From: Ilumatobacteraceae bacterium
GTDB taxonomy: Bacteria; Actinomycetota; Acidimicrobiia; Acidimicrobiales; Ilumatobacteraceae
Reading direction: 5' to 3'
Assembly: GCA_041742555.1 (NCBI GenBank)
Contig: JBGSII010000025.1
Coordinates: 1-57,307, forward strand
Length of the DNA stretch: 57,307 nt
Each line of letters begins with the position of its first letter. Position 1 is the stretch's first letter. The notes beneath the pieces were generated by a model that saw nothing but the letters and a program-made list of their open reading frames with translations, was not told the DNA's origin and did no database searches. The translations under genes and the position numbers were made by a program. Shown here one piece after another: positions 2,693-56,225 of this stretch.

Positions 2693-2711
2693 ATTGAAGC
2701 AGGGGATTCGC

Positions 2712-25100: not shown

Positions 25101-28100
25101 CCAGGCGGCGGGTACAGCTGATCCCGACGTCGCATGTCGTCGAACCCAAACCCATCCGGACGGGCTGGCCACCGTTCACCTGATACGTGATCGATTGCAC
25201 TCCGTCGGGATCCGCAACGCGGCCCTGCACGTTCACGTCGGGCTGGGCGAGTCCGACCGACCCGAACTCGAGCGGTGTTCCGCTCCATGCCTGACCGTCG
25301 CCGCCGAACACCGTGAAGAGCGGTCCACCGCTGGTGCCGGGATTGGTGATCTCGATGGGGTCGCTCTGCGACCAGAAGTAATCGACAAACGCGGTGTGCG
25401 CCGGGATCTCGGACGCCTGTGGGTTCGAGTTGCCGACGAGCGGCCCCATCCGGGTGACGGCGATGTCGATCGAGCCGGCGTAGATCTGCTGCCACGTCGC
25501 ACCGTCATCGGACGAGTACTCGAACACCCAGTTGTCGCCGGTCCGCGCGACGCGCAGGCTTCCCGGCACGGCGCCCGGGACGACGACGTTGGCAAGCGTC
25601 TGCAACCTGGTCGGCGTCAAATGGCCGACGAACGCCCGGGTGACAGATCCGTCGCTGAAGAGGTCGAATCGCACCAGGGTCTTGTCGCTCTGCTCGAACA
25701 CCACCCCTTGGATCTGCGACGCGAACGTGACGACCGATTCGAATCCGGCCTGCACGACGAAGTCGTTGTCGGCGACCGGCTGAAGCAGGCGCAGCGCCGA
25801 TTGGTTGGCCGTCGACAAGTCATGTCGCTGTTGCCCGATCACGCTCATCGAGACCATTCCGGGCAGGGCCGTGACGGTGCTCGTACCCCGGGGATCGACC
25901 ACGTACCAACGATCATCGAGTTCGGCGAGATCGAAGTTGTCGGAAAATGCACCACCAGGGCACGGCGGGGTCGTGAACCCCGACGGAGTCGACCTCGCCG
26001 TGTTGCCCACGGCGTCGGTCGACTGCACCTCGTAGAAGTACTGCGACCCACAGCTGAGCGGGCCCACGACGGCGCTGTGCGAGAACGAGGCGATGTTGTC
26101 GATCACGGGAGTCAGCTCGAGCGCCGCAGTCGTACCCCAGTTCACCCGGGTGGTCGCCGGTTCGTCGGTCGTCCAACCGACCGTTGCCTGAGCCGACGAC
26201 GGAGCCCCGACCTGCACCTCGACCTCGGCCAGCGTCGGCGGCCGAGTATCGGGCCCGAGACCGCCGTCGTCGGCCGCGATCGGACTGTCGACGTTGTAGA
26301 AGTAGTCGATCGACCCGATGAACCCCGGGGGCGACGCAGTTCCGGTCGCCGTGTTGCCGATGTATGGGCCGACATACGTTGACGCGACCGAGGCATCGAA
26401 CGTCACGATCGGTGACCAGATCACCGCGTCGACCGAGTGCCACATCGTCCAATTGTCGCCGGAGCGCTGCACTCGCAGGTAGTGCTCCGCTGACGCCGGC
26501 AGGTCGCCATAGTGGCGCACTGCGGCGACGCCCGCGATGACGCTTGCGACATAGGCCTTCACGGCGGCACCGTCATGGTGCACCTCGAAACGCAGGAACG
26601 TGTCGTCGCTTTCCTCGACGACGATGCCCTGCATCTGAAAACGCGTGGTGAGGACCGACTCGAACTTGGCCTCGACGCCGAAATTCCCGAGTGGACCGGC
26701 TTGACGGAGCCTCAGCGCCCGGTTTGCACCCGCGAAGAGATTGTGGTCGCTGCCGGCCGGAAGCGACACGAGGGTGTTGGTGTCGGTGACGGTCACCACG
26801 GCGTCGCCGACAGGATCGACCACGTTCCAGTGGGACCCGAGCTGACCGGAGCTGAAATCGTCCGAGACGATCGGTGTGCAGGGTTCGGTGACGAACTCGA
26901 CCATCTGCCCCACCGTGGTACCGGCCGCGGTACTCGACTCTGGGCGCACGTAGTGGCGCTGGCCGCACGCCAGGAAACCGATCGAGATGGAGTGCGCGGT
27001 CGCCGCGGTGGCTCCTGCGGTCGTCGACACGAGCTCGACGGTCGGCCCGTGCCGGAGCACACCCGAGGCCGGCTCGTTGGTCTGCCACGTGACGGTCGCG
27101 TCACGCGCCGAGGCGTCGACGACGACGCCGCTGATCGTCGGACCCGGGTTCGGCGGAATCGGTGACGTCGCACTGTCAAAATAGTCCACCCGGGCCGTGA
27201 ACGCAGGCGCGCTGCCCGACGCGAAGGTGGTTGCGTACAAGCCGACCTGGCGCAGTTCGAGGGGGATGGTGAACGATCCAGCCGGGAACCACGAGGAACC
27301 GTTCCACGAACGCTGGAACGTCCAACTGTCGCCCGATCTCACCGTGCGGAGATATCGCTGGGGGACACCACCCAGACTCTTGCGGAAGACCCTGCGGGCG
27401 GTGCCGTCCTCCATGCGATAGACGTCGACGTTCACCTTGCTGTTTGCGTAGGTGATGGCCGAGCGGACCCAGTTCCGTTCGTCCTGCCAGAACAACATGC
27501 CCTGGCCCTGGCCTTGCTGATCCGGCACCGACGTGAAGCCCACGGCCACGTCGAAATCGGTGTCCGCGACGTCCTGGACGACGCGCGGAGCGGTGTCCCG
27601 ACCCGTCCACAGGTCACGGATCGGGCCGTCTGGCATGGCGATGTCGAGCGTCGTGCCCGACATGGCGAACGTAGCGCCACCAACCGGATCCTCTGTGCGC
27701 CAAACTGCATTCAGGCTTGGACTATTGAAGTCATCGCTCGCCGGGCCGACACCGGAGCTGCCGTTGAACGAACTCGATCCCACCGTCACGATCGGCGCTC
27801 GGTACGCACCGAGAATGTCGGCCCGGGCAGTGGTTGGGTCGACGGTGCCGAGCAGGCCGGCCGAGAACGTCTGCGGCGAGCCTCCGGTCTGCCGCGGAAG
27901 GTATGGGAAGTTGAGGCTCGATCCGCCACGACCCAAACCGAGCACCGTCATCCGACCGTCCAGCTGCCGGTAGGAGTCGACTGAGCCATCATCTTCGTGC
28001 TGGGCGAGGAAGAAGCTCGCGCCGACGGCGGGATCGGCCGCGTACATCCACTCCTCGCCCGGCAGGTCGAGCTCGAAGGTGCCATCGGATGGCACCTGGA

Positions 28101-30534
28101 CACCATCGGAGCGGCGAATGAAGTCACCGGCGTCGAATGTGCCGCCGGGTGTGCCCTCGTACAGCACCCAGAAGTCCGATGCCGTTCGCCGCATCTCGAG
28201 ATCCGTGTGCGTCGGGTACATGTTCCAGACCGCCACCCACGAATTGTCGACAGCCCGGGACTCGAACGTGATTCGGAGTGGACCCTCGTGCAACACGGTC
28301 GTCGTGGTCGTACCCGGACGGCCAGGGTGGAAGTACTTGGCAGGCGGCTTCGCGGCGTTGGGGAACCCGCGGAAGTCGCCCAGGGACCCCGTCGCCGACG
28401 TCCAGTTGAGCCAATCACGGCCCCCGGCGTCCACGATCGACGAGAACCCGCCTCCGGCAGTCGTGTGGAAGTACCAGGCGCTGCCATCGGAAAGATCGAA
28501 CCGCAGTGCCTCGAAACCCTCGTCCGTCGATGTCGTCACCGAGACCTGATCAGCGAAGGAGCGTGGATCGAGCCCTTTGGCCGCCTTGTCGAAGTAGGCG
28601 TAGTAGACGCGAGACTGACCAGCCGCCGTCGATCCCTCCAACTGCCACAGCAACGTGCCCGTGGCGTTCGTGTCTGCGTTGTAGGTGGTGGCGGGGTCGA
28701 ACTGGTGAGGGACCGTGTCATCGATCACGACACCGGCAGCATCGACCTCGACCACACGGATCGAGTCAGGGTCGAAGCCGGGGCCGCCGGCTCCAGCCGA
28801 CGCCATCAGCGAGGTGAAGTTGAGCTGTTGGTTGACGACCTTCCCGGTGCGCGCAACCGGATCCGGGCCGACCGTCAGAGGAACGCGGAAGTCGAAGGTC
28901 TCGTCCCACCAAGGGGCGTTGTCGTCCACGGTGGTCGTGACGTAGACGGTGGCCTCGTCGCTGATCACGCTGCCAGCGGTATTGGAGACCCGCACGCTGT
29001 ACTTCGAGCCGTTGTCCCCGGCGACCAGTGCCGGCGTCGTGAACTTCGAGCTGTTGGCGCCGGGCACCGGCTGACCGTCGAGGAGCCACTGGAACGCCAG
29101 CGGTCCCTGCCCACTCGCTCCAGCCGAGAACGTTGCTGACAGACCCGGCCGGATGAACACGTCCTGGGGCTGTCTTGTGATCACGGGGACACCCGTCGGC
29201 GGGGAGCGGTGAATCACGATCATCGGGCCCGGCCCTTCGACCATCGCCCCGAAGCCGGGGGGCTGATACGTCCACTGGATCGTGTTGGTGCCCGGTTCGA
29301 GCACCGCAGGATCGATCGGACGGAAGGACGTGTCCCACTTGTCCTCGGTCCCGACGAACGCGGGGAATGGTGTCGTGTCGTTGATCGAGATGTCCGGGCT
29401 CTCCCAATAGTTACCGAGCAGGTACGCCCGATCGGCGCCGTTGTAGTCCGCCGGGAGCTCGATGGTGTCACGGGCGATCTGCGGGAACGTTCGATCGAAG
29501 TAGAGCGCTCGATCCTCGAAGTTGCTGATCGTGAAGGCCTCGACACTGTAGGAACGCTGCAGGGTGAAGTCTGCAGAGGCGCCGCCTGGGGCTTCGACGA
29601 CGTTACCGTTGGCGTCGACGACACGAATCTTGAACCGCACGCCGCTCTGGCTGACCACGTCGGGGATGTTCCAGGTCACGCTGTAGGGAGGAGTCGAGTC
29701 CGTCCCGATGTGACCGATCGTGGCCCCGTTGGGCCGCTGCGAGACACCGCCCGGCCCGTAGTTGTTGCGCAAGAAGTTGTGCCAATCGCGGGTGACGCCG
29801 TCGTTGTCCTCGTCGAAACCGTCGTAGTACGCATGGAATTCGACGTACGCGGCATCGGTGGCAGTAGCGGCCAGCACCACCTGGTTGCCGTCGACCTGCA
29901 GGACCCCACCGACGTTCGGACTGAGTGCCGGCTGACCAGGCACCCCGACCGACGTCAGTTGTCCGGTCGGAGGGGTGACATCGCCACTCGACACGATCGG
30001 ATTCGATGCGTCGTAGTACACCCGGACCATCACGTCGTGAACGTGGTAGGCGCCTGTGGCCTCCTGGAACCGAAGGACGTTGGTTCCCGTCCGCAGCTGC
30101 TCCAGTGGGACAGTCGCCGTGAACGGGGTTCGGCTGAAGTTGTCGCCCACGTTCGGCACGATCTGAGGGCCGCCGTTGATCGTGAACCGAGCCGACCGGT
30201 TGGCCCGGTTGCGCCAGAGGTCGACATAGATCACCGCGGCAATCGCACCGCTCACGTTGTCGGGAATGTCGAGTTCGATCGACTTCGCGCAGCCTGCCGG
30301 CTCGGCGTACCAGGATCCGCCTGCGGTGGCATCACTGTCGCAGCCAGCGGTGTAGGACGCGTGGCTGGCCCAGTACTCCTTGTACGTGTACTCGGTGTCG
30401 TTGAAGTACACCCCAGCCTGAACGGGTGCCGGGGTGGACACCATCACTCCGCCGACCAGGAGCGCCACTGCGAGCACGAGCCCGAAACCGGCACTCCGAG
30501 TTCTGTTGTTGGTCATCTCCGCGCACCCGCTCAT
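22183..30534 (-). CDS. Giant secreted multidomain protein (2,783 aa) with Ig, FN3-like, ConA/LamG-like, PKD-like and CHB_HEX_C-like modules
   Basis: Uninterrupted ORF. Signal peptide RTRSAGFGLVLAVALLVGGVMVSTPAPVQA. Contains an I-set-like Ig domain and a DUF2341-like segment (NAPWWDETFDFRVPLTV). Three FN3-like plus ConA-like repeats follow (WNVVDPVGDA...; WYVVDPRGTS...), then two CHB_HEX_C-like units (IRYTLDGSEPT; IRYTLDGTDPT), a PKD-like unit and two Laminin_G_3-like domains at the C-terminus. Alternative start ATG 30516. Confidence 0.9.
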   Translation of the reverse strand: MSGCAEMTNNRTRSAGFGLVLAVALLVGGVMVSTPAPVQAGVYFNDTEYTYKEYWASHASYTAGCDSDATAGGSWYAEPAGCAKSIELDIPDNVSGAIAAVIYVDLWRNRANRSARFTINGGPQIVPNVGDNFSRTPFTATVPLEQLRTGTNVLRFQEATGAYHVHDVMVRVYYDASNPIVSSGDVTPPTGQLTSVGVPGQPALSPNVGGVLQVDGNQVVLAATATDAAYVEFHAYYDGFDEDNDGVTRDWHNFLRNNYGPGGVSQRPNGATIGHIGTDSTPPYSVTWNIPDVVSQSGVRFKIRVVDANGNVVEAPGGASADFTLQRSYSVEAFTISNFEDRALYFDRTFPQIARDTIELPADYNGADRAYLLGNYWESPDISINDTTPFPAFVGTEDKWDTSFRPIDPAVLEPGTNTIQWTYQPPGFGAMVEGPGPMIVIHRSPPTGVPVITRQPQDVFIRPGLSATFSAGASGQGPLAFQWLLDGQPVPGANSSKFTTPALVAGDNGSKYSVRVSNTAGSVISDEATVYVTTTVDDNAPWWDETFDFRVPLTVGPDPVARTGKVVNQQLNFTSLMASAGAGGPGFDPDSIRVVEVDAAGVVIDDTVPHQFDPATTYNADTNATGTLLWQLEGSTAAGQSRVYYAYFDKAAKGLDPRSFADQVSVTTSTDEGFEALRFDLSDGSAWYFHTTAGGGFSSIVDAGGRDWLNWTSATGSLGDFRGFPNAAKPPAKYFHPGRPGTTTTTVLHEGPLRITFESRAVDNSWVAVWNMYPTHTDLEMRRTASDFWVLYEGTPGGTFDAGDFIRRSDGVQVPSDGTFELDLPGEEWMYAADPAVGASFFLAQHEDDGSVDSYRQLDGRMTVLGLGRGGSSLNFPYLPRQTGGSPQTFSAGLLGTVDPTTARADILGAYRAPIVTVGSSSFNGSSGVGPASDDFNSPSLNAVWRTEDPVGGATFAMSGTTLDIAMPDGPIRDLWTGRDTAPRVVQDVADTDFDVAVGFTSVPDQQGQGQGMLFWQDERNWVRSAITYANSKVNVDVYRMEDGTARRVFRKSLGGVPQRYLRTVRSGDSWTFQRSWNGSSWFPAGSFTIPLELRQVGLYATTFASGSAPAFTARVDYFDSATSPIPPNPGPTISGVVVDASARDATVTWQTNEPASGVLRHGPTVELVSTTAGATAATAHSISIGFLACGQRHYVRPESSTAAGTTVGQMVEFVTEPCTPIVSDDFSSGQLGSHWNVVDPVGDAVVTVTDTNTLVSLPAGSDHNLFAGANRALRLRQAGPLGNFGVEAKFESVLTTRFQMQGIVVEESDDTFLRFEVHHDGAAVKAYVASVIAGVAAVRHYGDLPASAEHYLRVQRSGDNWTMWHSVDAVIWSPIVTFDASVASTYVGPYIGNTATGTASPPGFIGSIDYFYNVDSPIAADDGGLGPDTRPPTLAEVEVQVGAPSSAQATVGWTTDEPATTRVNWGTTAALELTPVIDNIASFSHSAVVGPLSCGSQYFYEVQSTDAVGNTARSTPSGFTTPPCPGGAFSDNFDLAELDDRWYVVDPRGTSTVTALPGMVSMSVIGQQRHDLSTANQSALRLLQPVADNDFVVQAGFESVVTFASQIQGVVFEQSDKTLVRFDLFSDGSVTRAFVGHLTPTRLQTLANVVVPGAVPGSLRVARTGDNWVFEYSSDDGATWQQIYAGSIDIAVTRMGPLVGNSNPQASEIPAHTAFVDYFWSQSDPIEITNPGTSGGPLFTVFGGDGQAWSGTPLEFGSVGLAQPDVNVQGRVADPDGVQSITYQVNGGQPVRMGLGSTTCDVGISCTRRLANDGDFNADIDASKLSPGANTVTIRAIDGAFNVSSIDIPVNYTPGKVWPKRYGVDWQGVSDTHDVAQPIDGRWTLDGGRLHIDEIGYDRLIAVGDGGWGSFEVEVPITINSFDPAGYQFPSSGPGIGFIPHWLGHSPTSTVQPKFGFQDRLGALVWYRYRNDTNAERFEIRDSKAQLVAEDLTGRQLRRGTEYIYKMQVQEGTATTGPSYRLKVWEQGTAEPFEWDIETTLAVGAPDQGSLALVAHHVDATFGDVQVRELSAVTPLVSPPSGTYEGLTTVSMSSGSVGGEIRYTLDGSEPTSTSSLYTTPLIVDSSMTVKAKAFRSGFDPSDTTERIYEILDVEFQRVTTNLQAEYKFDEGSGNTVRNSVPGGSALDLTVQSGSTTTWLPAQQALRLGGSSLIRTGLGARPLNDALAASGSFTVEMWVDPASVGGGDQTLLHLAPSAPDQQNLAVRQSGQIFRTDVRTSSTNAMGQPTLSTPGVFGQDLQQVVLVRRPAGALEVYVDGELRSTSTRSGTLAGWGPGFAFGLGNTIQRNSPWNGDLYHVAIYRDDLSALEIAQNHRAGVLPPSNNERPQVNAGPDVTVLEGATVTMAATATDDGLPSSPGALVTAWTQIAGPAAATIVNPASPATNITLSTAGIYRFQLTADDGERSSSDVVTVTVVAAGALPPPTASPSPGTYPGSVEVSLTSSVVSSTIRYTLDGTDPTATSTVYAAPFDVSQTTTVKARVFVSGIEPSAVAAFGYQISAEARATEGLLAFYPFNEPSGSLVLDQSGVATPLDMVIADTSRTVRVPSGLRFDAPTVAESAAAVELNSAIRGSGQFSVEMWLEPANVSQVSAMVMGLSINGSSRHVGLVQQATVLDSYVRSTATNIRGEPPLSAANQVTASRAHVVLTRAVNGTTTLFVNGVAVATGTAGGTLGSWEQWPRLHIGAERSGSKPWLGTIYLLAVYDRALSVDEIQRHGRIGDV
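22186..22835 (-). other. Laminin_G_3-like (ConA-like) domain, C-terminal copy
   Basis: LLAFYPFNEPSGSLVLDQSG...FSVEMWLEP...LFVNGVAVATG...WLGTIYLLAVYDRALSVDEIQRH. Confidence 0.65.
23405..24050 (-). other. Laminin_G_3-like (ConA-like) domain, first copy
   Basis: LQAEYKFDEGSGNTVRNS...FTVEMWVDP...LEVYVDGELRST...WNGDLYHVAIYRDDLSALEIAQNH. Confidence 0.65.
28939..29187 (-). other. Immunoglobulin I-set/Ig_3-like domain
   Basis: PVITRQPQDVFIRPGLSATFSAGASGQGPLAFQWLLDGQPVPGANSSKFTTPALVAGDNGSKYSVRVSNTAGSVISDEATVYV (aa about 450-532 of the protein). Confidence 0.6.
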
Positions 30535-30653
30535 TTCACTGTGACGGAGCTCCGTTCGCTCGAGCCCCGCCAGGCCGACGAGCCCATGTTAGGCACGGCC
30601 ACCACCGGTGTCTACCGCGGGCACCAAGGATCAAGAAGGGGTCAGATTTCGAG

Positions 30654-30687
30654 GGTGAATTCAGCCCCAGATCGCTCCGAATTCACC
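30654..30687. promoter_or_regulatory. Perfect 9-bp inverted repeat (ggtgaattc, 16-nt spacer, gaattcacc) between a sulfotransferase gene and the second giant gene
   Basis: Read directly: arms at 30654-30662 and 30679-30687. The arms are AT-richer than their surroundings and lie about 120-150 nt upstream of the giant-gene start codon on the - strand. Could be an operator or an intercistronic RNA stem-loop. Confidence 0.35.
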
Positions 30688-30758
30688 ATCTGCGTTCGCT
30701 CTCGCGCCGTTCGTGACCGTCGCCCCGCCGGACGCGAAGCCGTTCGGGCTGCGGCTGG

Positions 30759-31685
30759 TCACACGATGTCAGCGAAGCGCTCCCAGAGCGAGTCCGTCTC
30801 GCGCCGCACGCGAGCGACGTCGTCGGCGCCCAGGCGCTCCGCCCACGTGGACAGCGCCCGACGACTGTCGCGGCGGACGTCGATGGCGTCCACCGGTTCG
30901 GATGCTGCGGACGACAACCGCTTCACGGTCGATGCCTGTGTGGGCCCGAACTTCAAGCCGAGACGGTCGTACAAACCCTCGACCTCGACCTGAGGGTTCA
31001 TCGCGAGGCGCTCGTAACTGACGACCATGATCCGGGGATCGACGTCCCGCATCGCGTCGACGAACCCGTAGATCCCGTTCCACATCACGATGCCCTGCTC
31101 GACCAGGTCATCGGAGGGGCGTTCCACCAATCGCCGGACGTCGGCGTCGACGCCCGCCAGGCAGTCGACCATGAGGCGCGGCTGTTCGAGCCAGTGGCGG
31201 AAATCGAACCCCCAGTCACGCGCCACCAGCGACCCGACGAAGGCAACCGGATCGCGCACCAAGACGACCGCAGTGACATCGAACTCCCGAACCAGCCATG
31301 ACGTCGAGAACACGGCGATCGGATCCTTGACCAACGCAGACGCGCCACGTCGACGCGCGTGCGCCGCGTCACGGGCGAGGCGGACCATACGCCGAGCCTC
31401 ACGCATCGACGGCCTCGCCGTCAGGTTGTGAACCAACGGATAGCGCAACGCGAGGACCTGCTCCACGGGATGACGCCACTCCTCGGCGTTGGTGGCATCG
31501 ACGTAGAGAAACTGATGGGAAGGCCGGGGCACCATCCACCGCTGCATCTCCACGATGTTGAACGGTTCTTGGACGTAGTGCAGACGATCGGCCGACGCGA
31601 GCAAACGCCCCACCCACGTCGTGCCCGACCGGTGGGACCCCGTCACGAGAACGGCACCCGCCCCCGCACCACCTGTCGCCGTCAC
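30759..31685 (-). CDS. Sulfotransferase (Sulfotransfer_3-like)
   Basis: P-loop-like PAPS motif VLVTGSHRSGTTWVGRLL near the N-terminus. Start trimmed to GTG 31685, which overlaps the upstream stop as GTGA; the track's longer ORF runs into the upstream gene. Confidence 0.8.
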   Translation of the reverse strand: MTATGGAGAGAVLVTGSHRSGTTWVGRLLASADRLHYVQEPFNIVEMQRWMVPRPSHQFLYVDATNAEEWRHPVEQVLALRYPLVHNLTARPSMREARRMVRLARDAAHARRRGASALVKDPIAVFSTSWLVREFDVTAVVLVRDPVAFVGSLVARDWGFDFRHWLEQPRLMVDCLAGVDADVRRLVERPSDDLVEQGIVMWNGIYGFVDAMRDVDPRIMVVSYERLAMNPQVEVEGLYDRLGLKFGPTQASTVKRLSSAASEPVDAIDVRRDSRRALSTWAERLGADDVARVRRETDSLWERFADIV

Positions 31686-32581
31686 GATCGCCCGCCGCGC
31701 ACGACCCGAACCTGATGCCGCAGCCACCGGCGCACACGAACAGCTGGCCACGCGACGTTGAACGTGGCGAGCACGGCAACCCGCTCGGCAGGCGGATGTC
31801 GACTCCGCATGATGGCACCCACGGTCGCCCACCACAGCCAGAAGGCAGGAAAGCGCACGCCCCGCGCGGCAGGCCCGAACCACTGCGCAAGACTCCGGTT
31901 GGAAGGGTTCGCCACCAACGACTGGCCTGGCCGGCGCACGAAGAGTGGTTCCGGGACGACACTGAACCGGCCGGCCACGGCCAACTCGTAGAGGAGCGAG
32001 ACGTCCGATCCCGGAAAGGGCGCAATCAGCGCCGTTCGAGCCAGGACATCTCGCCGCATGAGCCCGAACACGGCGTTGCAGTACGTCAGGCGACGCACGA
32101 CCTCGGTCAGCCGATGAGATGCACCGGATGACGCTGCGTGCAGATCGTCCTCGTAGACCTTCATGGTCGCTCCTGCGTCATCGACGAATCGGGTCCAGCT
32201 GTGGGCGAGCACGCTGTGAGGTTCGGCATCGAGTCGATCGACCAATCGTTCGATCAGCTGTGGTTCCATGAGGTCGTCATGGGCGTGCCAGCGGAAGTAT
32301 TCACCCTGCGCACGTTCGAACACGAGGTTGTAGTTGCGTGCGGCACCCTGATTGACCTCATTGCGCAGCACGACGACCCGCTCATCTCGAGCCGCCGCGC
32401 GCTCGAGGATCTCGGGCGTCGAGTCGGTCGAGGCGTTGTCGGACACGATGAGCTCGAAGTCGAGGAACGTCTGTGACAACACGCTGTCTATCGACTGCTC
32501 GAGAAACCGCTCGCCGTTGAAGACGGGCAGGCCGATCGACACCCGGGGGCGGTGCACCACGTCGGTCGCCGTCCACGTCAC
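31682..32581 (-). CDS. Glycosyltransferase family 2
   Basis: VSIGLPVFNGERFLEQSIDSVLSQTFLDFELIVSDNASTDSTPEIL...HAHDDL. Start trimmed to GTG 32581, overlapping the upstream stop (GTGA); GTG 32587 is also possible. Confidence 0.9.
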   Translation of the reverse strand: MTWTATDVVHRPRVSIGLPVFNGERFLEQSIDSVLSQTFLDFELIVSDNASTDSTPEILERAAARDERVVVLRNEVNQGAARNYNLVFERAQGEYFRWHAHDDLMEPQLIERLVDRLDAEPHSVLAHSWTRFVDDAGATMKVYEDDLHAASSGASHRLTEVVRRLTYCNAVFGLMRRDVLARTALIAPFPGSDVSLLYELAVAGRFSVVPEPLFVRRPGQSLVANPSNRSLAQWFGPAARGVRFPAFWLWWATVGAIMRSRHPPAERVAVLATFNVAWPAVRVRRWLRHQVRVVRGGRS

Positions 32582-33441
32582 ATCGACCACTCCACCAGCT
32601 CCAGCCCGCTGAACTCTCGGATCGCCTCCACTTCGGGCTCGAGGTACTCGCGCACGCGGGCCCGATCCAGCGGCGTCCACTCGGGCGGTTCGATCGGCCG
32701 ACCGACGATTCGGCGGACGTAGCGCCGATAGCGGGGGTGTTTCACCGGGTCACCCCAGATGGGGATTGCCCAGCGCAGCGGCCGCCGCTTGCGGCTGCTG
32801 TCGTGGATGCGCCGCCCGATCTTCGGGTGCTCGAAACCAGGATCGACACCGATGAACGAGAGCACGTCACGCAGCACACGCTGCGCATCCGTGGCGAACT
32901 CCTCGTATGACACGACCAGGATCTGAGCCGGATCGTAGAACTCGAGGAAACACGACAGCTGGGTCCAGTACCGCGAGGTCTGCACGAGACTGCTGCGTTC
33001 GAGATCGGCGAGGGCATCGGAGAGATCCCCGCGCAACTTACCCTCGCCGACCGCATGGACCCAGTGCGATTCGATCCGTTCGAACGGATCGCGCACCATG
33101 TAAACGAGGCGGACATCGGGGAGATGGTGATGCATCCGCGCAGCGACGCCGGCGTGTTTGTGGCACTTGGTGTAGTTCACCGACGACTCACCTGCAGCGA
33201 GCGCAGACCCGGCGAACTGGCTGCGGTACCAGTCCATGCCGAGCCTGCTGTATCGCGGTTCGATGAAGAAGTCGAGTTCCTTGGGTTCGGACGCGTCGAT
33301 GTCGGGATGCTCGGCGAGGTAGCGGTGCAAGCTCGTCGTCGCCGACTTCATCGCGCCGATCGTGATCCAGGTCGGCAGCCGACCGGCAACGGGCCTGTGT
33401 GACTCATTTGTCGACATCTGCGCCGCCTCCTCGTCGATCAT
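32578..33441 (-). CDS. Sulfotransferase (Sulfotransfer_1-like; paralog of 1106..1942)
   Basis: WITIGAMKSATTSLHRYLAEHPDIDASEPKELDFFIEP...MDWYRSQF...VYMVRDPFERIESHW. Start trimmed to ATG 33441, overlapping the upstream stop (ATGA); ATG 33417 is an alternative. Confidence 0.9.
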   Translation of the reverse strand: MIDEEAAQMSTNESHRPVAGRLPTWITIGAMKSATTSLHRYLAEHPDIDASEPKELDFFIEPRYSRLGMDWYRSQFAGSALAAGESSVNYTKCHKHAGVAARMHHHLPDVRLVYMVRDPFERIESHWVHAVGEGKLRGDLSDALADLERSSLVQTSRYWTQLSCFLEFYDPAQILVVSYEEFATDAQRVLRDVLSFIGVDPGFEHPKIGRRIHDSSRKRRPLRWAIPIWGDPVKHPRYRRYVRRIVGRPIEPPEWTPLDRARVREYLEPEVEAIREFSGLELVEWSM

Positions 33442-34370
33442 CGTCCATGAACGGTGCGGTACTCCCGGTAGTGCACGCCGAACGCTCCGACCGCCGAACC
33501 GATGCCGACCATCGTCAGCCGAAGCGCCGCAAGAGACACATCGGCACCACGGGGGACAGCCATGAGCGCGAGTACGAGTCCCTTTCCAGCCAACCATGCG
33601 CCTGCGGCCATGCGCCGGATGCGGCGCGGCCATGCCGGCTGATCCAGCAACAGCATCACCAGGCTGCGCGTGACGCCAACGCGGAACCACCGACGGAGCA
33701 GCCAAGCCGGCGTCTGCCTCGACGCTGGAATCCATTCATCGACGATCGCGTCGGCGTCCCACACGATCCGGCCGCCCCGGCGTTCGATGAGCGTGAAGTG
33801 CAGCAGATCCTCCCCACCGGTCAGCGAGAGCGACTCGTCGAATCCTTCCGGGGGAACGACCGACGCACGCACGATGACCCCTGAGGTGCGGGCGCGATAG
33901 GCCCGGATGGTCTGTCCAGTGACAAAACTGGGCGCTTCGAACGCACCACAGTCGACGGCGATGGCCTTGCCGCCAGGCTCGTAGATCGGCGAGGACGGAC
34001 CGATGACGACGTCAGCATCGGTGCGCTCCTGGGTCTCGAGCAGCCTGGCAAGCCAGTCCGATCGCGGCGCCTCGTCGTCATCGATCCAGGCGATCCAATC
34101 GGGCCGACGGGACAACGCCAGCGCCAGCGCACGGTTGCGGGCGTGTGAGATCCCTCGCTGGGGCTCCACGTCGACCGTGACCGCCCAGCGGGATGTCAGC
34201 CCCGACGCCTCCACGACGGTTGTTGCCACACCCTGCTGGTCATTGTCGACGACGACCAGCTCGACGGTGATGCCGCTGGTGTCCAGGACGTGCAACCGTT
34301 CGAGCAACCGCCCGAGTCCGTCTGGTCGCCGAAACGTGACGATGCAGATGACCAACGTTGGGCTCTCCAT
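33438..34370 (-). CDS. Glycosyltransferase family 2
   Basis: MESPTLVICIVTFRRPDGLGRLLERL...VVVDND...ISHARNRALA...IAWIDDDE. Start trimmed to ATG 34370. Confidence 0.88.
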   Translation of the reverse strand: MESPTLVICIVTFRRPDGLGRLLERLHVLDTSGITVELVVVDNDQQGVATTVVEASGLTSRWAVTVDVEPQRGISHARNRALALALSRRPDWIAWIDDDEAPRSDWLARLLETQERTDADVVIGPSSPIYEPGGKAIAVDCGAFEAPSFVTGQTIRAYRARTSGVIVRASVVPPEGFDESLSLTGGEDLLHFTLIERRGGRIVWDADAIVDEWIPASRQTPAWLLRRWFRVGVTRSLVMLLLDQPAWPRRIRRMAAGAWLAGKGLVLALMAVPRGADVSLAALRLTMVGIGSAVGAFGVHYREYRTVHGR

Positions 34371-34683
34371 GTCAGACGCGTTGTGACGGCGCGTTCCGCC
34401 CGCTCTGACACCTCGACACGAACTGCACGACGCCGCAAGGTAGCAGACCGTCCCGAGGCTCGTACGTCTGCCGAACCTCGGCAGCAACGCTGTTGCTTCT
34501 GACAGAGGTACCGCAGAATCCAGCCAGGGGTTGAGTTCTCGTCATGAATCCGTAAGAATCACGGAGTCGTGTCGGACCACCGACGCCGAAGATCCGGTCA
34601 AGGTTGGGATGGCGGGCTCAAGTATCGACAGCGACCGGCCGATCACTCCCCACTGCACCCCCCCCAACGGAGGTTCCAATTCC
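34371..34683. promoter_or_regulatory. Divergent promoter region (GT2-led operon on the - strand; secreted-protein gene on the + strand)
   Basis: Back-to-back starts at 34370 (-) and 34684 (+). Contains a perfect dyad agcaac-gct-gttgct at 34483-34497, a C8 tract at 34658-34665 and an SD ggagg at 34669-34673. Confidence 0.4.
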
Positions 34684-35655
34684 ATGATCCGCAAACTCAC
34701 GCTCGGTCTAGCGCTCGCCTCGAGCGCTCTGGTCGTACCCGTGCTGGCCACGCAGACAGGTGCCAGCTCAGACCCCCAGCAGGTCAGTGTCTGGAAGGCC
34801 AGCGGTCTCCAACAGACCGCGTCGGAGTACTGGCAGCCCGAGCTGACCACGACGACCAGGTTCACCGACGGCAAGGCCTACATCAAGATCACCGTGACGT
34901 CCAAGCCGTCCAACAAGCAAGTGCAGCCGGCCGTGTGCTTCTGGCGCGACGAAGGGTCCACCAGGAACAAGTACGAGACGTGCGCGGCCACGAACAACGT
35001 CACCTTCACCGGTACCGGCACGCTGTACATCGATCTCGGCACCCCCCGAACATGGTGGAAGAAGAACGGCGTGTACGACTGGTCACAGGAAGCCTCCCGA
35101 GGCCGGATCATGATCAAGAACCCGGGCACGTCAGGCGCGTTGCTCCTCGCCAGCCGATGCGGCGCGGCGTGTTACCCGGGCGGGCTGGACGCACTCAGCC
35201 CGCATATTCCGATCACCATGAGCTCTGAGCTGATCTTCGTGGCCAAGGGGAAGGAGCTTGCGTGCCCATCGGACTGGAACACCCCGCTCTGCGGGACCGG
35301 GGGCGGAGGCGGAGGCGGAGGTTCATCGACCACCATTCCTCCCTCGACCACGCAGCCTCCTTCGACCACACAGCCTCCTTCGACCACACAGCCTCCCGCA
35401 CCAGGAACCAGCTTCACCGTCACACCTCGGGACCGGTCGCTCGCAGTCTCCTGGAGCGATCCCGTGGCAAAGCGATTCCAACTCCGCTACCGCCCCACCG
35501 GTTCATCGACGTGGATCTGGTTCCCGGGCGAGGTGTCGGATGGACGCACGATCACCGGACTGGTCAACGGCCGAAACTACGAAGTCCAGGTTCGCAAGTA
35601 CGTTCACCCGACGTGGCGAGACTGGGCCTCGGCCACCGCCACCCCGGGGGCCTGA
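34684..35655 (+). CDS. Secreted protein: Cys-containing N-domain, Gly/PSTTQP linker, C-terminal FN3-like module shared with the giant protein
   Basis: ATG 34684 lies 10 nt after GGAGG. Signal peptide MIRKLTLGLALASSALVVPVLATQTGA. The linker is GGGGGGGSSTTIPPSTTQPPSTTQPPSTTQPP. The C-terminal 83 aa (FTVTPRDRSLAVSWSDPVAKRFQLRYRP...TGLVNGRNYEVQVR...WASATATPGA) matches the terminal modules of the 2712..14648 protein. Confidence 0.85.
   Translation: MIRKLTLGLALASSALVVPVLATQTGASSDPQQVSVWKASGLQQTASEYWQPELTTTTRFTDGKAYIKITVTSKPSNKQVQPAVCFWRDEGSTRNKYETCAATNNVTFTGTGTLYIDLGTPRTWWKKNGVYDWSQEASRGRIMIKNPGTSGALLLASRCGAACYPGGLDALSPHIPITMSSELIFVAKGKELACPSDWNTPLCGTGGGGGGGGSSTTIPPSTTQPPSTTQPPSTTQPPAPGTSFTVTPRDRSLAVSWSDPVAKRFQLRYRPTGSSTWIWFPGEVSDGRTITGLVNGRNYEVQVRKYVHPTWRDWASATATPGA
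35338..35391 (+). repeat. 18-bp tandem repeat x3 encoding (PSTTQP)3 linker
   Basis: cctccctcgaccacgcag / cctccttcgaccacacag / cctccttcgaccacacag read directly. A (ggcgga)n Gly tract precedes it at about 35302-35320. Confidence 0.9.
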
Positions 35656-35695
35656 CCGGCACTCCCAGGTCCGTGCCGGTGTCGATGGTGTGGGT

Positions 35696-36601
35696 TCAAC
35701 CCGCACCATCGACACCGGTGCCCAACCAGCCCGAGAGATCGCGGCCGAGATATCCACTCAACTGCTCGACGTCACGCCGGTAATACTCGACGAGCGCCCG
35801 CCGGTCGGTCTCGAGCAGTTCGGGCTTGACCAGGGAGCGGCCGAGGAACGAATCCCAGGCTGGCCGCAATCGTTCGACAACCCCCGCACCGAGCATCGGA
35901 CGCATGGCAGACTTGACCCGAAGCACAGCCGCAGCGGTGCGATTCGCCGGGAGCCCGGACGCATTCACGCCGTCCTCTGATGTCACCTCCACTTGCTCGT
36001 CCACGCCCAGGTGCCGGAAGATCGACCGGAGCACTGCGGACCGGTCTGCCCGGAAGTCCTGATACAAGACCACGAGCAGCTGCTCCTCTCGGAAGAAGGT
36101 GAGGTACCGCTGGAGCTGCTGGTGGTAGAGCCCGCCATCGAGGTAATACGGCGCACGAAGGTCGTGACCGTCGATGCGCTGCGGTTGCTCCGCAAGTGCC
36201 ATGGCGAAGTCGTCACAGCGTTCCGTGCCGTCGCGACGGTGCATCAGGAAGTCCGACCAGGCCCGCTCCACCGGATTGCGCAACATGGCGATCAAGCTGG
36301 CTTCGGGGTGCTCTCGGTGGATCGCGCCGGGTGCAGCCTCGTTGCGGAGATACTCCGGCGAGAGGTCACCACGACGCTGATCACGTCCTGCACCTCGGTA
36401 GAGCGCCTCGTACTGGCTCCGCTCCGTCACGGATCGCCTGAGCAACTCAGGGGTGGCAGACGGGTTGTCGACGACGGCATAGAAGTTCGGTTCCTTCACC
36501 GTCGGCACGAAGATCTCCGGGTGCTGACCGAGCAGACGGTGCAGCGCAGTGGTACCGCTGCGGTAGGCACCGATCACGAAGAAGTCCGGCGGCGGGCTCA
36601 A
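35696..36601 (-). CDS. Sulfotransferase
   Basis: DFFVIGAYRSGTTALHRLLGQHPEIFVPTVKEPNFY and IAMLRNPVERAWSDF (5'-PSB and 3'-PB motifs). TTG start at 36601 overlaps the upstream stop (TTGA). Confidence 0.88.
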   Translation of the reverse strand: MSPPPDFFVIGAYRSGTTALHRLLGQHPEIFVPTVKEPNFYAVVDNPSATPELLRRSVTERSQYEALYRGAGRDQRRGDLSPEYLRNEAAPGAIHREHPEASLIAMLRNPVERAWSDFLMHRRDGTERCDDFAMALAEQPQRIDGHDLRAPYYLDGGLYHQQLQRYLTFFREEQLLVVLYQDFRADRSAVLRSIFRHLGVDEQVEVTSEDGVNASGLPANRTAAAVLRVKSAMRPMLGAGVVERLRPAWDSFLGRSLVKPELLETDRRALVEYYRRDVEQLSGYLGRDLSGWLGTGVDGAG

Positions 36602-37824
36602 CGATCCTCACCCCAGAGCGACGCGATGTCGGCCTCGACCCCGAGCGCCCCGAGTTGCGACGACACCTCGTCGCGGTACGCCGGGTTCGCGAGCAGCACC
36701 ACAGCCGGTCGCGTGCCGGACAACACGTCCGGGGCATCGATCCGATGACCCGTCCCGGGGACACCCCAGCCGGTCTTGCGCGGATTGATGTCCACAACGG
36801 TCACATCGCGATCACTCGCCACCAGGTTCAGCCAGGTCATGCCCTTCGAGCCCGAACCCCACAGCACCACCGGACCGCGCTCGGTGAACCCCGACAGCTC
36901 CGCGCGTGCCTCGTCGATCCGGAGGTCGGCGCGTCGTCCGAATTCGCGAGCGCGTTCCACCGTCAGCGCGACCCGATCGTCCGCGGCAGTATCCCGCGCA
37001 GCGGTGTCGACTTCGACAGCAGCCGCTCGTCCTTCGGCCCAGAGAAACTGCTCGTCGAACGCCGTCCCCAACGCGGTCACGGTCAACCTGGCGCGGCGGT
37101 GGGCCTCGCGCAGTGACGTCTCGACGAAGTACGACCGGTGCTCGTAGATGAGATCCCAGAGTGTGCAGTCACGAATCATGAGGTCCCCGTTCGGGACTTC
37201 GGAGTACACGATGCCGTCCTCGGCGACCACCGACGCCCGCAGGTCCTCGAGCGCCGACACCGGGTCGTCGAGGTGTTCGAGCACGTGCTGGGAGAACGCC
37301 AGCCGGACCTGTAGCGCCCCGCCCTGCGGGTAGAGCTCGGTGGACAATTGGACACGGGCATGCGTCGGGGCGCCCAGCCGCGCCGCGTCGTAGCTCGGAT
37401 CGAATCCGTACCCGGCGACCACACCAGCGTCACACAACATCGACAGGAAGTGACCAGGACCAGATCCAAGTTCGGCGACGGGTGTGCCGACGAGGTCGTG
37501 ATCTGCGATCAGCCGGTCGCGCAGCCAGTCGGCGTAGGCGCGAAAACTGGCGGAGAAGTGCAGTGTGTTCTCGTACGTGGCGTCGTAGTCGAGCAGGGAT
37601 TCGTCGAAGGACCGGTTGTAGAGGTGCGCGCAGGCCGCGCACACGACGAGATCGATGTGACCGCGTGGAACCCGCTTGGCGTCGTCCACCGACACCTGCG
37701 CATTGATCAGCACCGGCAGCTCAGGGAGTGACACCACGTCGTGCGCGCGATCACTCGCGCACACCGGACAGGCGGCTGCCGGGGCACCGTCCCGAACGGT
37801 CGGCTCGCCGCTCACCGCCGACAT
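36598..37824 (-). CDS. Class I SAM-dependent methyltransferase, Zn-ribbon + C-methyltransferase C-terminal-domain type (paralog C)
   Basis: CPVCAS...VVCAACAHLYN (4-Cys ribbon), SAM motif VAELGSGPGHF, and WDLIYEHRSYF. Start trimmed to ATG 37824, 2 nt after the upstream stop. Confidence 0.85.
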   Translation of the reverse strand: MSAVSGEPTVRDGAPAAACPVCASDRAHDVVSLPELPVLINAQVSVDDAKRVPRGHIDLVVCAACAHLYNRSFDESLLDYDATYENTLHFSASFRAYADWLRDRLIADHDLVGTPVAELGSGPGHFLSMLCDAGVVAGYGFDPSYDAARLGAPTHARVQLSTELYPQGGALQVRLAFSQHVLEHLDDPVSALEDLRASVVAEDGIVYSEVPNGDLMIRDCTLWDLIYEHRSYFVETSLREAHRRARLTVTALGTAFDEQFLWAEGRAAAVEVDTAARDTAADDRVALTVERAREFGRRADLRIDEARAELSGFTERGPVVLWGSGSKGMTWLNLVASDRDVTVVDINPRKTGWGVPGTGHRIDAPDVLSGTRPAVVLLANPAYRDEVSSQLGALGVEADIASLWGEDR

Positions 37825-37826
37825 CG

Positions 37827-39068
37827 TCAGAGCGCCTCGAGATCGGTCGTCACACCTACATCGGCGAGCGTCGCGGCGATCTCGTCGACATAGATCGGGT
37901 TCATCGCAACGACCAGATCGGGGGCGATCTTCCGCAACGCCTCGGGCGACACGATCTCGTGCTGCGACCCGACCATGTACTTGCCCCACTTGTGGGGATT
38001 GATGTCGACCGCGGCGGCCAGCTCGTCACCCAACGCCAGGTTGGAGATGAACGACACCCCTTTCGAACCTGACCCCCAGATGACGGCGCGGCCACCCTCG
38101 TCGGCCAGTCGAGCGATGCGCTCGCGCCAGCCGCCGACGAGGTCGTCGTAGCCCGCACGAAAGTGGTCGACACCGGCCCGCATCCGATCGAGGTCGGCCT
38201 CCTCGGCGAGCGGCTCGCCGGCCGCGGGAACGGTGGAGGGTCGCGCGGCGATCAGCAGGTACTGATCGTCGTACTCGAGCGACAACTCGACCACCTCGAA
38301 ACCGGTCCGCCGGAACAGGCGGGCGAGCGAGCCGAGCGAGAAGTACGAGCAGTGCTCGTAGTAGATGTCCCAGAACGCCACCTCGTCGAGCACTCGTTGC
38401 ACGTCGGGCAGCTCGAACAGCACGACCGTGTCGGGGCGATCGCCGATCGAGCGCCGGATCGTCGACATGAACTCCGCCACGTTCGGGATGTGTTCCAACG
38501 TGTGCCGACAGATCACGACGTCGGCATCGAGATGCGTGTAGCGCTCGTCGTAGAAGTCGACGATCCATTCGATACCAGCGGCCGCCGGGTCGTCGATACG
38601 TTCGGGGTGGACACCCGGATCGATCCCGATGCAGTGGCCCGCACCGGCTTTGGCCATCTCGATGAGGAACTCGCCCTTGCCGCAACCGATCTCCAACACC
38701 GTCCGGTCGCGCAGGTCGTAGTCGTCCACCCACCGAGCAGCGAGCTCGGCGGCGAACTCCATGAACGTTGCCGAGAACCCCTGCGTCTCCTCGTAGCGCT
38801 GGGAGTACTCGGCCTGGCCGGGAACGAACGCCGTGTTGGTCACGAACCCGCAGGTGTCACAGAACGCGATCCGGAGTTCCCCGCGAGGGAACTCGCTCGC
38901 TTCGGTCGGATCGTCGAGAAGGAGACAGCTGTTGGTCGGAACCTGACCCTCCTCGAAGAACACCCTGAGCGTCGTCGCACCACATGCAGGGCACGGCCGG
39001 TCGATGGGTGCATCGGTGGTCGAGCCACCACGCGGGAGCGGGGAGCGGGACGGAACATTGTTCGGCAT
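37827..39068 (-). CDS. Class I SAM-dependent methyltransferase, same architecture (paralog B)
   Basis: CPACGA...AFCDTCGFVTN, VLEIGCGKGEF, and WDIYYEHCSYFS. Start trimmed to ATG 39068, 2 nt after the upstream stop. Confidence 0.85.
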   Translation of the reverse strand: MPNNVPSRSPLPRGGSTTDAPIDRPCPACGATTLRVFFEEGQVPTNSCLLLDDPTEASEFPRGELRIAFCDTCGFVTNTAFVPGQAEYSQRYEETQGFSATFMEFAAELAARWVDDYDLRDRTVLEIGCGKGEFLIEMAKAGAGHCIGIDPGVHPERIDDPAAAGIEWIVDFYDERYTHLDADVVICRHTLEHIPNVAEFMSTIRRSIGDRPDTVVLFELPDVQRVLDEVAFWDIYYEHCSYFSLGSLARLFRRTGFEVVELSLEYDDQYLLIAARPSTVPAAGEPLAEEADLDRMRAGVDHFRAGYDDLVGGWRERIARLADEGGRAVIWGSGSKGVSFISNLALGDELAAAVDINPHKWGKYMVGSQHEIVSPEALRKIAPDLVVAMNPIYVDEIAATLADVGVTTDLEAL

Positions 39069-39070
39069 GG

Positions 39071-40306
39071 TCAGATCAGCTCCGGGACGGGGACGGGAAC
39101 GAGGAAGCGGCCGCCTGCAGCGGCGTAGTCGGCCTGCTGCTGCATGATCTCGGCGGCGAAGTTCCAAGCGAGCAGCAGGAGGACGTCGGGCGGGTCCTCG
39201 ACGAGTACCTCAGGGCCCACGATGAGCTGGTGGGTACCAGGCATGAAACGGCCGTGCTTGTGGACGTTGCGGTCGACGACATACGCAACGAGATCGGTGC
39301 CGATCCCGGTGGCGTTCAGCATGGTCGCCCCCTTGGCCGCAGCGCCGTAGGCCGCGATGGTCCGCCCCTCGGCCCGCAACGAGCGCAGCATCTCCAGCAA
39401 CGAGGAACGCAGCTCGTCGACTTTCGCTCCGAAGCCTGCATAGAACGAGAACCGATCGAGACCGGCCTCACGTTCGGCCTCGATCCGTGTGAGAACGTGG
39501 TCACTCGGTTCGTCATGATGTCCGAGGTGCCAGCGGTTGGTGCCGCCGTGCAGGTCGGGGAAGTACTCGACGTGGTTGAGGTGCAGACCATGGCGTTCGG
39601 CGAGGTTCTTCACCGACAGACACGAGTGATAGAAGAAGTGCTCGTGGTAGACCGTGTCGAACGCGCAGCGGTCGATCAGGTCCCAGACGCTGGGGTTCTC
39701 CACCGTGATCAAGCCGTCGTCAGCGAGGAGATGAGCCAGGCCCGCGACGAAGTCGTTCGGATCGGGAATGTGGGCCATCACGTTGTTCGCCACGATCACG
39801 TCGGCGGGACCGCGCTTCGCCCGCAGGTCGCAGGCAGCCTCGAAGCCGAAGAACTCCTCGATCGTCTCGACCCCGATAGCACGCGCGGCGGCGGCCTGAT
39901 CGGGAGCCGGGTCGAACCCGACGCACGGCACACCGGCATCGACGAAGTTCTTGAGCAGGTAGCCGTCGTTGCTGGCGATCTCGACCGCAAGCGAGTCGGG
40001 GCCGAGCCGGCGGGCCTCGACGAGCCCGAGCACGTGATCGCGGCTGTGCTGGAGTAGATGGTCGGAGAACGACGAGAAGTAGAGATAGTTGTCGACGAAC
40101 AACACCTCACGGTCGACGTCTTCGGTGATCTGGACGAGCGAGCACGCTGGACAGAACGCCACAGCGAGCGCAAAGCGCTGTTCGCGTTCGGGGTGGTCGA
40201 CGAGCTCGGCCGTGACCAAGGCGTCCGCGAGCGGAGTCTCCCCGAGGTCGAGGAACGTCTCGATCTCGGCCGACCCGCAGCCACGGCAAGTGGTGATCCG
40301 ACTCAC
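39071..40306 (-). CDS. Class I SAM-dependent methyltransferase, NDP-hexose C-methyltransferase (TylCIII/EryBIII)-like architecture (paralog A)
   Basis: CRGCGS...[35 protein letters not shown], and [12 protein letters not shown]. Start trimmed to GTG 40306, overlapping the upstream stop (GTGA). Confidence 0.85.
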
Positions 40307-41340
40307 GCGGGTACCCCTCCGACCCAATGCAGATCGCCCGTGAGGCGGCCATCGGTCATCGACTGCTGGAGATGTCGGAGCCGCATGAAGCGGGCCCCTT
40401 CGAGATCGTCGATGGTCAGACCGTTCGCCACCATCGCCTCGCGAAGCGATTCGGCGCCGCGTCGAACCGTCCAGCGAGGCGTCGCCTCCGGGAACCGAGT
40501 GCACAGCTTGTCGCAGTTCACGCGGTAGTTCCGCAGATCGTTGAACGCTTCGTCCGACATCGTCACCTTCGCCCCGGTGACCTCACCGACGATCTCGGCG
40601 ACGTCGCTGATGCGGTAGTTCTCGTCGGTGTGGCCGACGTTGAAGGCCTCGTCGTGGACGAGCGACCGATCGGCTTCCATCAACACGCAGAAGGCACGTG
40701 CGATGTCCTCGATGTGCACGAGCGGGCGCCACGACGATCCGTCGCTCTTCAGGAACACCTTGCCGGTCGTGACCGCGAACCCGGTGAGGTTGTTGACGAC
40801 CAGGTCTCCTCGCAGACGTTCCGAGACACCGTAGGCCGTGGCGTTGCGCAGGTAGGTCGGGGTGAAACGGTCGTCGGCGAGTTCGTGGAGGTCCTGCTCG
40901 ACGAAGACCTTCGACTCGCCGTACGGCGTCACCGGGAGGAACTCGGCTCCTTCGTCGAGCCAGTCGTCACCATGGGCCCCGTAAGTCGAACACGACGACG
41001 AGAAGAGGAATCGTTCGACACCTGAGTCCTTCGCGATCTGCGCCAGCCGGGTCGATGCCCGGTGGTTGACCTCGTACGTGGCGTCGGGATTGAGATCCCC
41101 GGCAGGATCATTGCTCATGCCCGCGAGGTGGATGACCGCATCGATCCCGCCGAGATGCTGCGGTTCGACGTCGCGCACGTCGAGACGAAGCTCGACATCG
41201 GGGCGGGCGAGCCGGGTGCCGAACACACAGTCCTCGAACAACATGCTGTCGAGCCCGACAACTTCATGGCCGCGTTCTTGCAGCATCGGCACGAGCACCG
41301 TGCCGATGTATCCGTCATGTCCTGTCACGAGCACCTTCAT
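40303..41340 (-). CDS. NAD-dependent epimerase/dehydratase (extended SDR)
   Basis: [17 protein letters not shown] (Rossmann GxxGxxG) and catalytic PYGESK (YxxxK). Start trimmed to ATG 41340, overlapping the rfbF stop (ATGA). Confidence 0.88.
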
Positions 41341-42116: not shown

Positions 42117-42138
42117 CTCCCGTCGTGATAGCGCATCA

Positions 42139-43894: not shown

Positions 43895-43911
43895 GGGGGT
43901 GCCGAGCCGGA

Positions 43912-56166: not shown

Positions 56167-56184
56167 GCCATCGGCGTGATCCTT

Positions 56185-56224: not shown

Positions 56225-56225
56225 G

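Follow-up and report, generated by a model that had tools for sequence, protein, structure and literature searches.

The window analysed here, the 57,307 nucleotides (nt) of contig JBGSII010000025.1 from an Ilumatobacteraceae bacterium (assembly GCA_041742555.1), carries on its minus strand four consecutive genes in which glycosyltransferases (GT) of family 2 (GT2) and sulfotransferases (ST) alternate in the order GT2a-ST1-GT2b-ST2, with stop codons that overlap start codons at every junction. We consider it probable that a cluster for a heteropolysaccharide, sulfated and probably also methylated, has these four genes as its promoter-proximal unit, that their alternation is derived, and that their overlaps are ordinary. 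This reading is based on domain identities, conserved catalytic motifs and conserved gene content; substrates and order of action we infer. The unit is embedded in a cluster of the sulfated-polysaccharide type of about 55 kb, which occupies most of the window and contains four STs, five GTs (two GT2 and three of family 4, GT4) plus a priming enzyme, three methyltransferases, and cysD, cysNC and cysQ.

The identities of the genes, their order on the minus strand and the overlapping codons, as given in a preliminary description of this DNA, were confirmed in the sequence and by Pfam searches. The first gene of the unit, GT2a (33438..34370), encodes a protein of 310 amino acids, a length also called in contigs L085-L089, and matched PF00535 with an E value of 1.8e-14 and 54.5 bits (gathering cut-off 23.3). 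GT2b (31682..32581), placed also by orthologue alignment, matched the same model with 1.6e-31 and 109.9 bits. ST1 (32578..33441) is a sulfotransferase of the 3′-phosphoadenosine 5′-phosphosulfate (PAPS) type, similar to the heparan sulfate 3-O-sulfotransferases (3-OST) and N-sulfotransferases, and ST2 (30759..31685) is a divergent enzyme of the PAPS type, recognised also by its PAPS motifs. With PF13469 they reached 69.3 bits (7.5e-19) and 50.0 bits (6e-13), respectively, and with PF00685 50.4 bits (2.6e-13) and 32.3 bits, the gathering cut-offs of the two models being 27 and 22. Read on the minus strand, the junctions are ATGA at 33441-33438, GTGA at 32581-32578 and GTGA at 31685-31682. The acidic DXD-type motif of GT2a is DDD, at residues 97-99, and the protein has a single C-terminal hydrophobic segment; in GT2b, D102-D103 and D48-N49-x-S51-T52-D53 (motifs SDNASTD and HDD) are invariant over 10 orthologues. 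The sequence comparison of GT2a with GT2b gave no significant similarity. The NCBIfam search left all four STs of the cluster without a named family and returned, for GT2a and GT2b, only N-terminal matches below threshold, from which sugar specificity is not assignable. The promoter of the unit probably lies, we infer, in the intergenic region 34371..34683, from which GT2a (minus strand) and an fn3 gene (plus strand) diverge and which appears as a gap of 313 nt in the gene calls of L085. A terminator scan of 30300-35800 gave none credible inside the four genes, with two terminator-like matches against 2.3 expected.

All the proteins of the window were mapped onto 13 orthologous loci, and ST1 and ST2 had their nearest relatives in uncultured Acidimicrobiales and Ilumatobacteraceae. 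The common order, that of about 10 of the loci, is GT4c-Wzy-GT2a-STx-ST1-GT2b-GT4b-GH26-fn3-ST2-Giant (seen in L003, L005, L006, L007, L008/L002, L011 and L090), where Giant is a giant secreted protein and STx is a fifth ST type with the P-loop GMLQRTGTNHLW, exemplified by L008:9090-9992. STx was seen between GT2a and ST1 or GT2b in L005-L008, L011, L090 and L091, the last of these having GT2a-STx-GT2b and no ST1; when an STx orthologue was sought in the window none was found, the best match (E 0.003) falling inside ST1. The slot between GT2a and GT2b is variable and holds STx and ST1, STx only, or ST1 only. The alternation GT2a-ST1-GT2b-ST2-Giant was present in 3 of the 13 loci, namely the window (together with near-identical Logan contigs), L001, whose proteins share 74-84% amino acid identity with those of the window, and L004. 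Among the matches listed for distant members of the GT2b family in metagenomes (at most 47% identity, many of the loci short), an adjacent ST was seen in none of 80 loci. The idea that the same alternation would recur in other genomes holds, then, for the clade of the window only, and the proposal of a separate sulfation step for every added sugar is not supported: between the GT2 genes there is either one ST or a pair of them, not always of the same type, and ST2 itself tracks Giant.

In the common order ST2 is three genes away from GT2b, with GT4b, GH26 and fn3 in between, and in 7 of the 9 loci with a visible downstream gene Giant comes right after ST2, other genes following ST2 in L092/L007 and L002/L008. 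In the window fn3 is inverted and GT4c-Wzy-GT4b form a contiguous group at a distance of 15-20 kb, whereas in the relatives the GT2a...GT2b block is located between Wzy and GT4b, and fn3 stands between GH26 and ST2 on the same strand. The layout of the window is thus consistent with a GT2a...GT2b block that moved beside ST2-Giant and with the loss of STx. Judging from gene order, the GT-ST-GT-ST arrangement is derived and lineage-specific. The conserved block would be formed by GT2a, one or two STs and GT2b, with ST2 in a separate ST2-Giant block, and the loss of STx plus the relocation of GT4b-GH26-fn3 would have joined both blocks in the clade of the window. A scan of genome contigs with the ST1 family gave seven Acidimicrobiia loci before the matches of about 40% identity; these homologues of ST1 and ST4 (from Solirubrobacterales, cyanobacteria and others) showed no GT2a or GT2b neighbours by tblastn, which is insensitive to remote GT2s. 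It was also possible to see, in an Ilumatobacter metagenome-assembled genome (MAG), a protein with a PF00884 sulfatase domain (L002:8169-10004) that has a GT2 on one side and, on the other, the ST2 orthologue, with which it shares a 4-nt overlap; a sulfation cluster here includes a sulfatase.

ST1 and ST2 are, from their sequences, distinct ST types with no recent duplication behind them, in agreement with the preliminary description. Their identity is 26% over a partial stretch of 149 residues (E 8e-4); the best-scoring Pfam model is the same for both, and finer-level profiles separate them. The ST1 family profile matched the heparan sulfate 3-OSTs and NDST with E values of 1e-25 to 1e-27 and the bacterial ST 3rnl with 2e-40, the cytosolic SULTs being farther than 3-OST/NDST, at about 1e-6 or worse. 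The ST2 family profile matched only TPST1 and Stf1 of Mycobacterium tuberculosis, with E values of about 1e-4 to 1e-5, and in the profile comparison it failed to show closeness to 3-OST/NDST. The predicted structure of ST2 (pLDDT 91.5) had its best fold matches in TPST1/2 with a TM score of about 0.5; these matches are weak (about 17% identity, E about 1e-6), small-molecule STs are among them, and the fold search gave no close solved structural neighbour for the model. In the family alignment, ST1 shows the 5′-phosphosulfate-binding loop GAMKSATTS, a glutamate in GESSVNY and the 3′-phosphate-binding motif RDPxxRxxS, with K32, T35, S37, R117, D118, P119, R122 and S125 as invariant or almost invariant residues. 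The conserved glutamate of GESSVNY may be the counterpart of the catalytic base of 3-OST. The corresponding motifs of ST2 are the 5′ loop GSHRSGTTW and the 3′ motif RDPVAFVGS, with T15, G16, R19, S20, G21, R144 and S152 invariant in the family. ST1 has its PAPS-binding motifs in common with the heparan sulfate 3-OSTs and the N-sulfotransferase domain of NDST, from which it differs in being bacterial, cytoplasmic and about 280 amino acids long.

The short overlaps would be ordinary operon compaction, in which no one-to-one pairing of GT and ST is encoded. With two genes of each kind, 2 of the 6 possible orders alternate (P = 1/3). NTGA occurs at 12 of the 24 TGA stops in those open reading frames (ORFs) of the window with high G+C at third codon positions (GC3), and, considering that about half of the TGA stops follow a non-C base, the motif forms automatically by composition. 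Candidate overlaps of 4 nt (-4) were found at 7 of 24 junctions of the minus-strand chain of the window, comprising Wzy/GT4b, NTP/Epi1, Epi1/MT3 and MT1/ST3 in addition to the three of the four-gene unit; other junctions are at -1 (cysD/cysNC), -7 (GT4c/Wzy) and +2 (MT3/MT2 and MT2/MT1). Five -4 overlaps in succession run through GT4c/Wzy/GT2a/STx/GT2b/GT4b in L091. It has been described that no intergenic distance is commoner in prokaryotes than -4 (PMC10666635) and that co-directional overlaps affect about 15% of gene pairs in most groups (PMC6728339). The termination-reinitiation pairs known from these works (PMC6728339, PMC10666635) have co-directional ATGA or GTGA overlaps, as at the junctions studied here; by comparison with generic -4/-1 reinitiation pairs, the four-gene junctions show nothing special, and ST1 possibly starts at +20 with a strong Shine-Dalgarno (SD) motif of its own.

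The longest ORFs of all four genes run upstream of the proposed starts, so that starts other than those at the overlaps are available, and the start assignment is secure for the GT2b/ST2 junction only. There, GTG 31685, which gene callers chose and which forms a 4-nt overlap with the GT2b stop, is the sole in-frame start keeping the conserved beta-strand before the PAPS loop (VLVTGSHRSGTTW); in L001 ST2 has an ATG at this position, and an indel of 9 nt that comes after it is in frame. For ST1, ATG 33441, with the 4-nt overlap, has no SD motif, and ATG 33417, located 20 nt past the GT2a stop, has AGGAGG 8 nt upstream. L001 and L004 share both ATGs with the window, and ATG 33417 is the one used in the database ST1 protein of the window (P0121, 279 amino acids) and in 5 near-identical contigs. 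Since the conserved core of ST1 starts only at residue 21, homology cannot choose between them. The candidate starts of GT2b are GTG 32590 (-13), GTG 32581 (-4) and GTG 32560/32557 (+17/+20), and GGAG lies 8 nt upstream of both GTG 32590 and GTG 32581. Gene calls gave GTG 32590, with a 13-nt overlap, in 3 contigs, the 4-nt overlap in 2 truncated contigs and a start at +29 in L001; the orthologue alignments of GT2b start at residue 12. A conserved NTG at -13 was considered as evidence for the GT2b start and dropped, this NTG being a by-product of the invariant C-terminal Trp codon of ST1. Just past two of the junctions, the indels are multiples of 3. STx has no viable start other than the -4 ATG in L005-L008 and L091, and in the clade of the window the overlapping ATG at 33438-33441 may be the remnant of a lost STx start, in frame with the SD motif and ATG of ST1.

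It had been proposed before that translation truly begins at the overlapping codons and that they couple translation so as to make the pairs in fixed stoichiometry. The former stood for GT2b/ST2 and proved ambiguous for ST1 (-4 or +20) and for GT2b (-13, -4 or +17). As to the latter, the sequence makes translational coupling likely at GT2b/ST2 and possible at GT2a/ST1 and ST1/GT2b; coupling is plausible from GT2b to ST2 and from GT2a to whichever ST comes next, it is in no way specific to GT-ST pairs, and the fixed-stoichiometry pairing found no support in synteny.

Several observations weigh against the interpretation that we favour. The ATGA at the GT2a stop is kept in 8 of 8 clean loci, be the next gene STx or ST1, and the adjacency of ST1 to GT2b is kept in all 11 loci with an ST1 orthologue; together they leave room for a specific functional linkage between GT and ST. 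Contigs L003, L004, L011 and L090 are frameshifted and their junctions unreadable. In the surrounding cluster, the protein similar to bacterial tyrosine kinases (BY-kinases) scores under the curated cut-offs, and no Polysacc_synt protein (Wzx flippase) nor other multi-span candidate was found in the window; Wzx is present in the relatives L002 and L092 and may lie outside the window. The conserved ATGA also speaks for an arrangement in which each GT2 is paired with the ST directly downstream, the coupling through 4-nt overlaps fixing a 1:1 stoichiometry, possibly within heteromeric GT-ST complexes, and so do the GT2b/ST2 overlap common to the window and L001, the different types of ST1 and ST2, and the enrichment of short overlaps among subunits of heteromeric complexes (PMC10666635). 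We regard this pairing as unlikely, taking into account that GT2b and ST2 are adjacent in the clade of the window only, that the relatives have two STs, or another ST, after GT2a, that the overlaps link all four genes as well as junctions of neither GT nor ST, and that the distant GT2b-family loci listed show no ST at their side. Moreover, ST1 probably begins 20 nt past the stop, a distance at which reinitiation is nearly abolished (PMC10666635). Also doubtful is a swappable sulfation cassette between GT2a and GT2b, its first ST always joined to the GT2a stop through the conserved ATGA, with a co-translational complex of GT2a and whichever ST comes next, a reading which would have a second branch in which ST2 is dedicated to the giant protein; if true, cassette exchange would diversify the sulfation of the surface polysaccharides of Acidimicrobiia, as serotype loci diversify O-antigens.

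The position of ST2 immediately upstream of Giant in most of the loci, and the tyrosylprotein sulfotransferases as its best structural and sequence neighbours, could mean that ST2 modifies the neighbouring giant secreted protein, on tyrosine or on its glycans, and not the repeat unit. This is improbable, as those matches are weak and extend to small-molecule STs, ST2 has no signal peptide whereas Giant is Sec-secreted, other genes follow ST2 in the two pairs of loci named above, and a spacer of 224 nt with a promoter-like site separates ST2 from Giant. In this spacer, at 30614-30586 of the minus strand, the sigma-70-like match is TAGACA-17-TAACAT (1 found against 0.3 expected). It is still harder to accept that the overlaps are annotation artefacts and that the three downstream genes start later, with their own ribosome-binding sites and no coupling, a reading that we hold to be very improbable. 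The alternative in-frame starts of ST1 (+20, with the strong SD motif) and GT2b (+17/+20), the formation of NTGA by composition at about 50% of TGA stops and the origin of the -13 NTG in a Trp codon all agree with it; on the other hand, no alternative start of ST2 keeps the conserved N-terminal strand and L001 has its ATG at the same place, STx has no other viable start than the -4 ATG in the loci mentioned, and the lengths of the indels after two junctions preserve the frame.

If the four genes belong to a sulfated-polysaccharide cluster, as we propose, the priming transferase would start the repeat unit on polyprenyl phosphate at the cytoplasmic face, and GT2a, GT2b and the three GT4s would extend it. 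The cytoplasmic ST1-ST4 would sulfate defined positions of the lipid-linked intermediate, with PAPS supplied by the CysD/CysNC of the cluster and the resulting 3′-phosphoadenosine 5′-phosphate (PAP) cleared by CysQ. Flipping would be carried out by the ABC exporter or by a Wzx encoded elsewhere, after which Wzy would polymerise the units, and GH26 and the giant secreted lectin-like proteins would trim or bind the product. The repeat unit may carry a methylated sugar derived from a CDP-hexose. The predicted product of the cluster is a sulfated polysaccharide.

The genes considered for these steps were located mostly by domain search. On the minus strand, a cysN-cysC fusion for PAPS supply (14848-16749), cysD (16749-17783, with a 1-nt overlap with cysNC) and a cysQ-like gene for PAP removal (17860-18843) form a dedicated PAPS module, 14848-18843, at the end of the operon. 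They are followed, on the same strand, by the priming polyprenyl glycosylphosphotransferase (18860..20443; TIGR03025 with 396 bits, cut-off 295.55, and PF02397), the BY-kinase or chain-length-regulator-like ATPase already mentioned (20653..22068) and Giant (22183..30534), of 2783 amino acids, which has a signal peptide and the domains ConA-like/Laminin_G_3, GH43_C2/DUF1349, CHB_HEX_C_1, Fn3_assoc and PKD. About 900 N-terminal residues of this protein are without a Pfam match. A second giant secreted protein, of 4030 amino acids, is encoded at 2556-14648 on the plus strand, and both share CHB_HEX_C_1, Fn3_assoc, PKD and ConA-like/Laminin_G_3. Upstream of GT2a, gene calls placed the secreted fn3-domain protein on the plus strand (34531..35655), called with 323 amino acids and a start near 34684. 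The third sulfotransferase, ST3 (35696..36601, minus strand), has a TTG start with a 4-nt overlap with the stop of the methyltransferase upstream of it.

The minus-strand region 36598..44892 encodes three methyltransferases, an epimerase/dehydratase, a glucose-1-phosphate cytidylyltransferase (TIGR02623, 340 bits, cut-off 300.25), a NUDIX protein, GT4a and a second epimerase. Within 36598-42116, the three methyltransferases are consecutive and downstream of the cytidylyltransferase and the dehydratase/epimerase, and in one of them the domains of NDP-hexose C-methyltransferases (zinc-binding and C-terminal) are present. This block suggests a methyl-branched or O-methylated deoxyhexose derived from a CDP-sugar. 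The GT4c-Wzy-GT4b block lies at 48444..52272 (minus strand), and its Wzy, with about 11 hydrophobic segments, matched PF04932 with 55.4 bits (cut-off 31.7). On the plus strand, an ABC exporter in which the transmembrane and nucleotide-binding domains are fused (52481-54256) and GH26 (55066-56166) both belong to the conserved content of the cluster. GH26 is adjoined, at the edge of the cluster, by a Mutator-family transposase (PF00872, 8e-132; 56151-57305, plus strand) cut by the end of the window. At the other end, the fourth sulfotransferase, ST4 (1106..1942, plus strand), is a paralogue of ST1 with 50% identity, and it has an orthologue (78%) in L010, an Ilumatobacteraceae MAG. The ORF upstream of it (69-1109, plus strand) has no Pfam match, overlaps ST4 by 4 nt and faces a competing ORF with high GC3 on the opposite strand (2-988).

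The cluster family was found in at least 12 genome or metagenome loci of Acidimicrobiia, with up to five ST types and its own PAPS supply. Judged by its gene content, it would add to the evidence for heavily sulfated glycans in uncultured actinobacteria, and its STs are candidate enzymes for regiospecific glycan sulfation. A coupled alternation of GT and ST, if true, would suggest a rule by which assembly lines for sulfated glycans are designed; from the comparison of loci, no such rule exists here. A known case is nodH with nodPQ of Sinorhizobium meliloti, where a glycan ST is encoded alongside ATP sulfurylase/APS kinase genes dedicated to PAPS supply. That system differs in that it has a single ST and in that the Nod factor, a lipo-chitooligosaccharide, serves as a signal and is no polysaccharide polymerised by Wzy.

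According to a widespread description, few bacteria other than cyanobacteria have sulfated polysaccharides (PMC8205485, PMC13390465). In the synechan cluster xss of Synechocystis sp. PCC 6803, which is of the Wzy type, PAPS-dependent STs of distinct subfamilies are interspersed with GTs, as in the window, and sulfation of the repeat unit on the cytoplasmic side before export is presumed (PMC8205485). The xss cluster has 2 STs, 8 GTs, Wzx and the regulators XssS/R/Q, and no cluster-encoded PAPS synthesis (PMC8205485). The window, in turn, has 4 STs, 5 GTs plus the primer, cysDNC/cysQ, 3 methyltransferases, a CDP-hexose pathway, giant secreted proteins and an actinobacterial host, and neither Wzx nor an XssQ-like regulator was seen in it. 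The resemblance is greatest with wps-1 of Actinoplanes missouriensis, also from Actinomycetota and of the Wzx/Wzy type, with two ST families, one of them similar to heparan sulfate STs, as is ST1 (PMC13390465). Compared by its description, wps-1 shares with the window a methyltransferase and GH26 as well; its sulfation is predicted and not yet demonstrated, it is much smaller than the cluster of the window, and a PAPS-supply module and giant lectin-like proteins are unreported for it (PMC13390465). By comparison with these two systems, the cluster of the window is of the same kind as synechan and wps-1, a kind that is known but still sparsely documented, and the arrangement of its four genes is ordinary.

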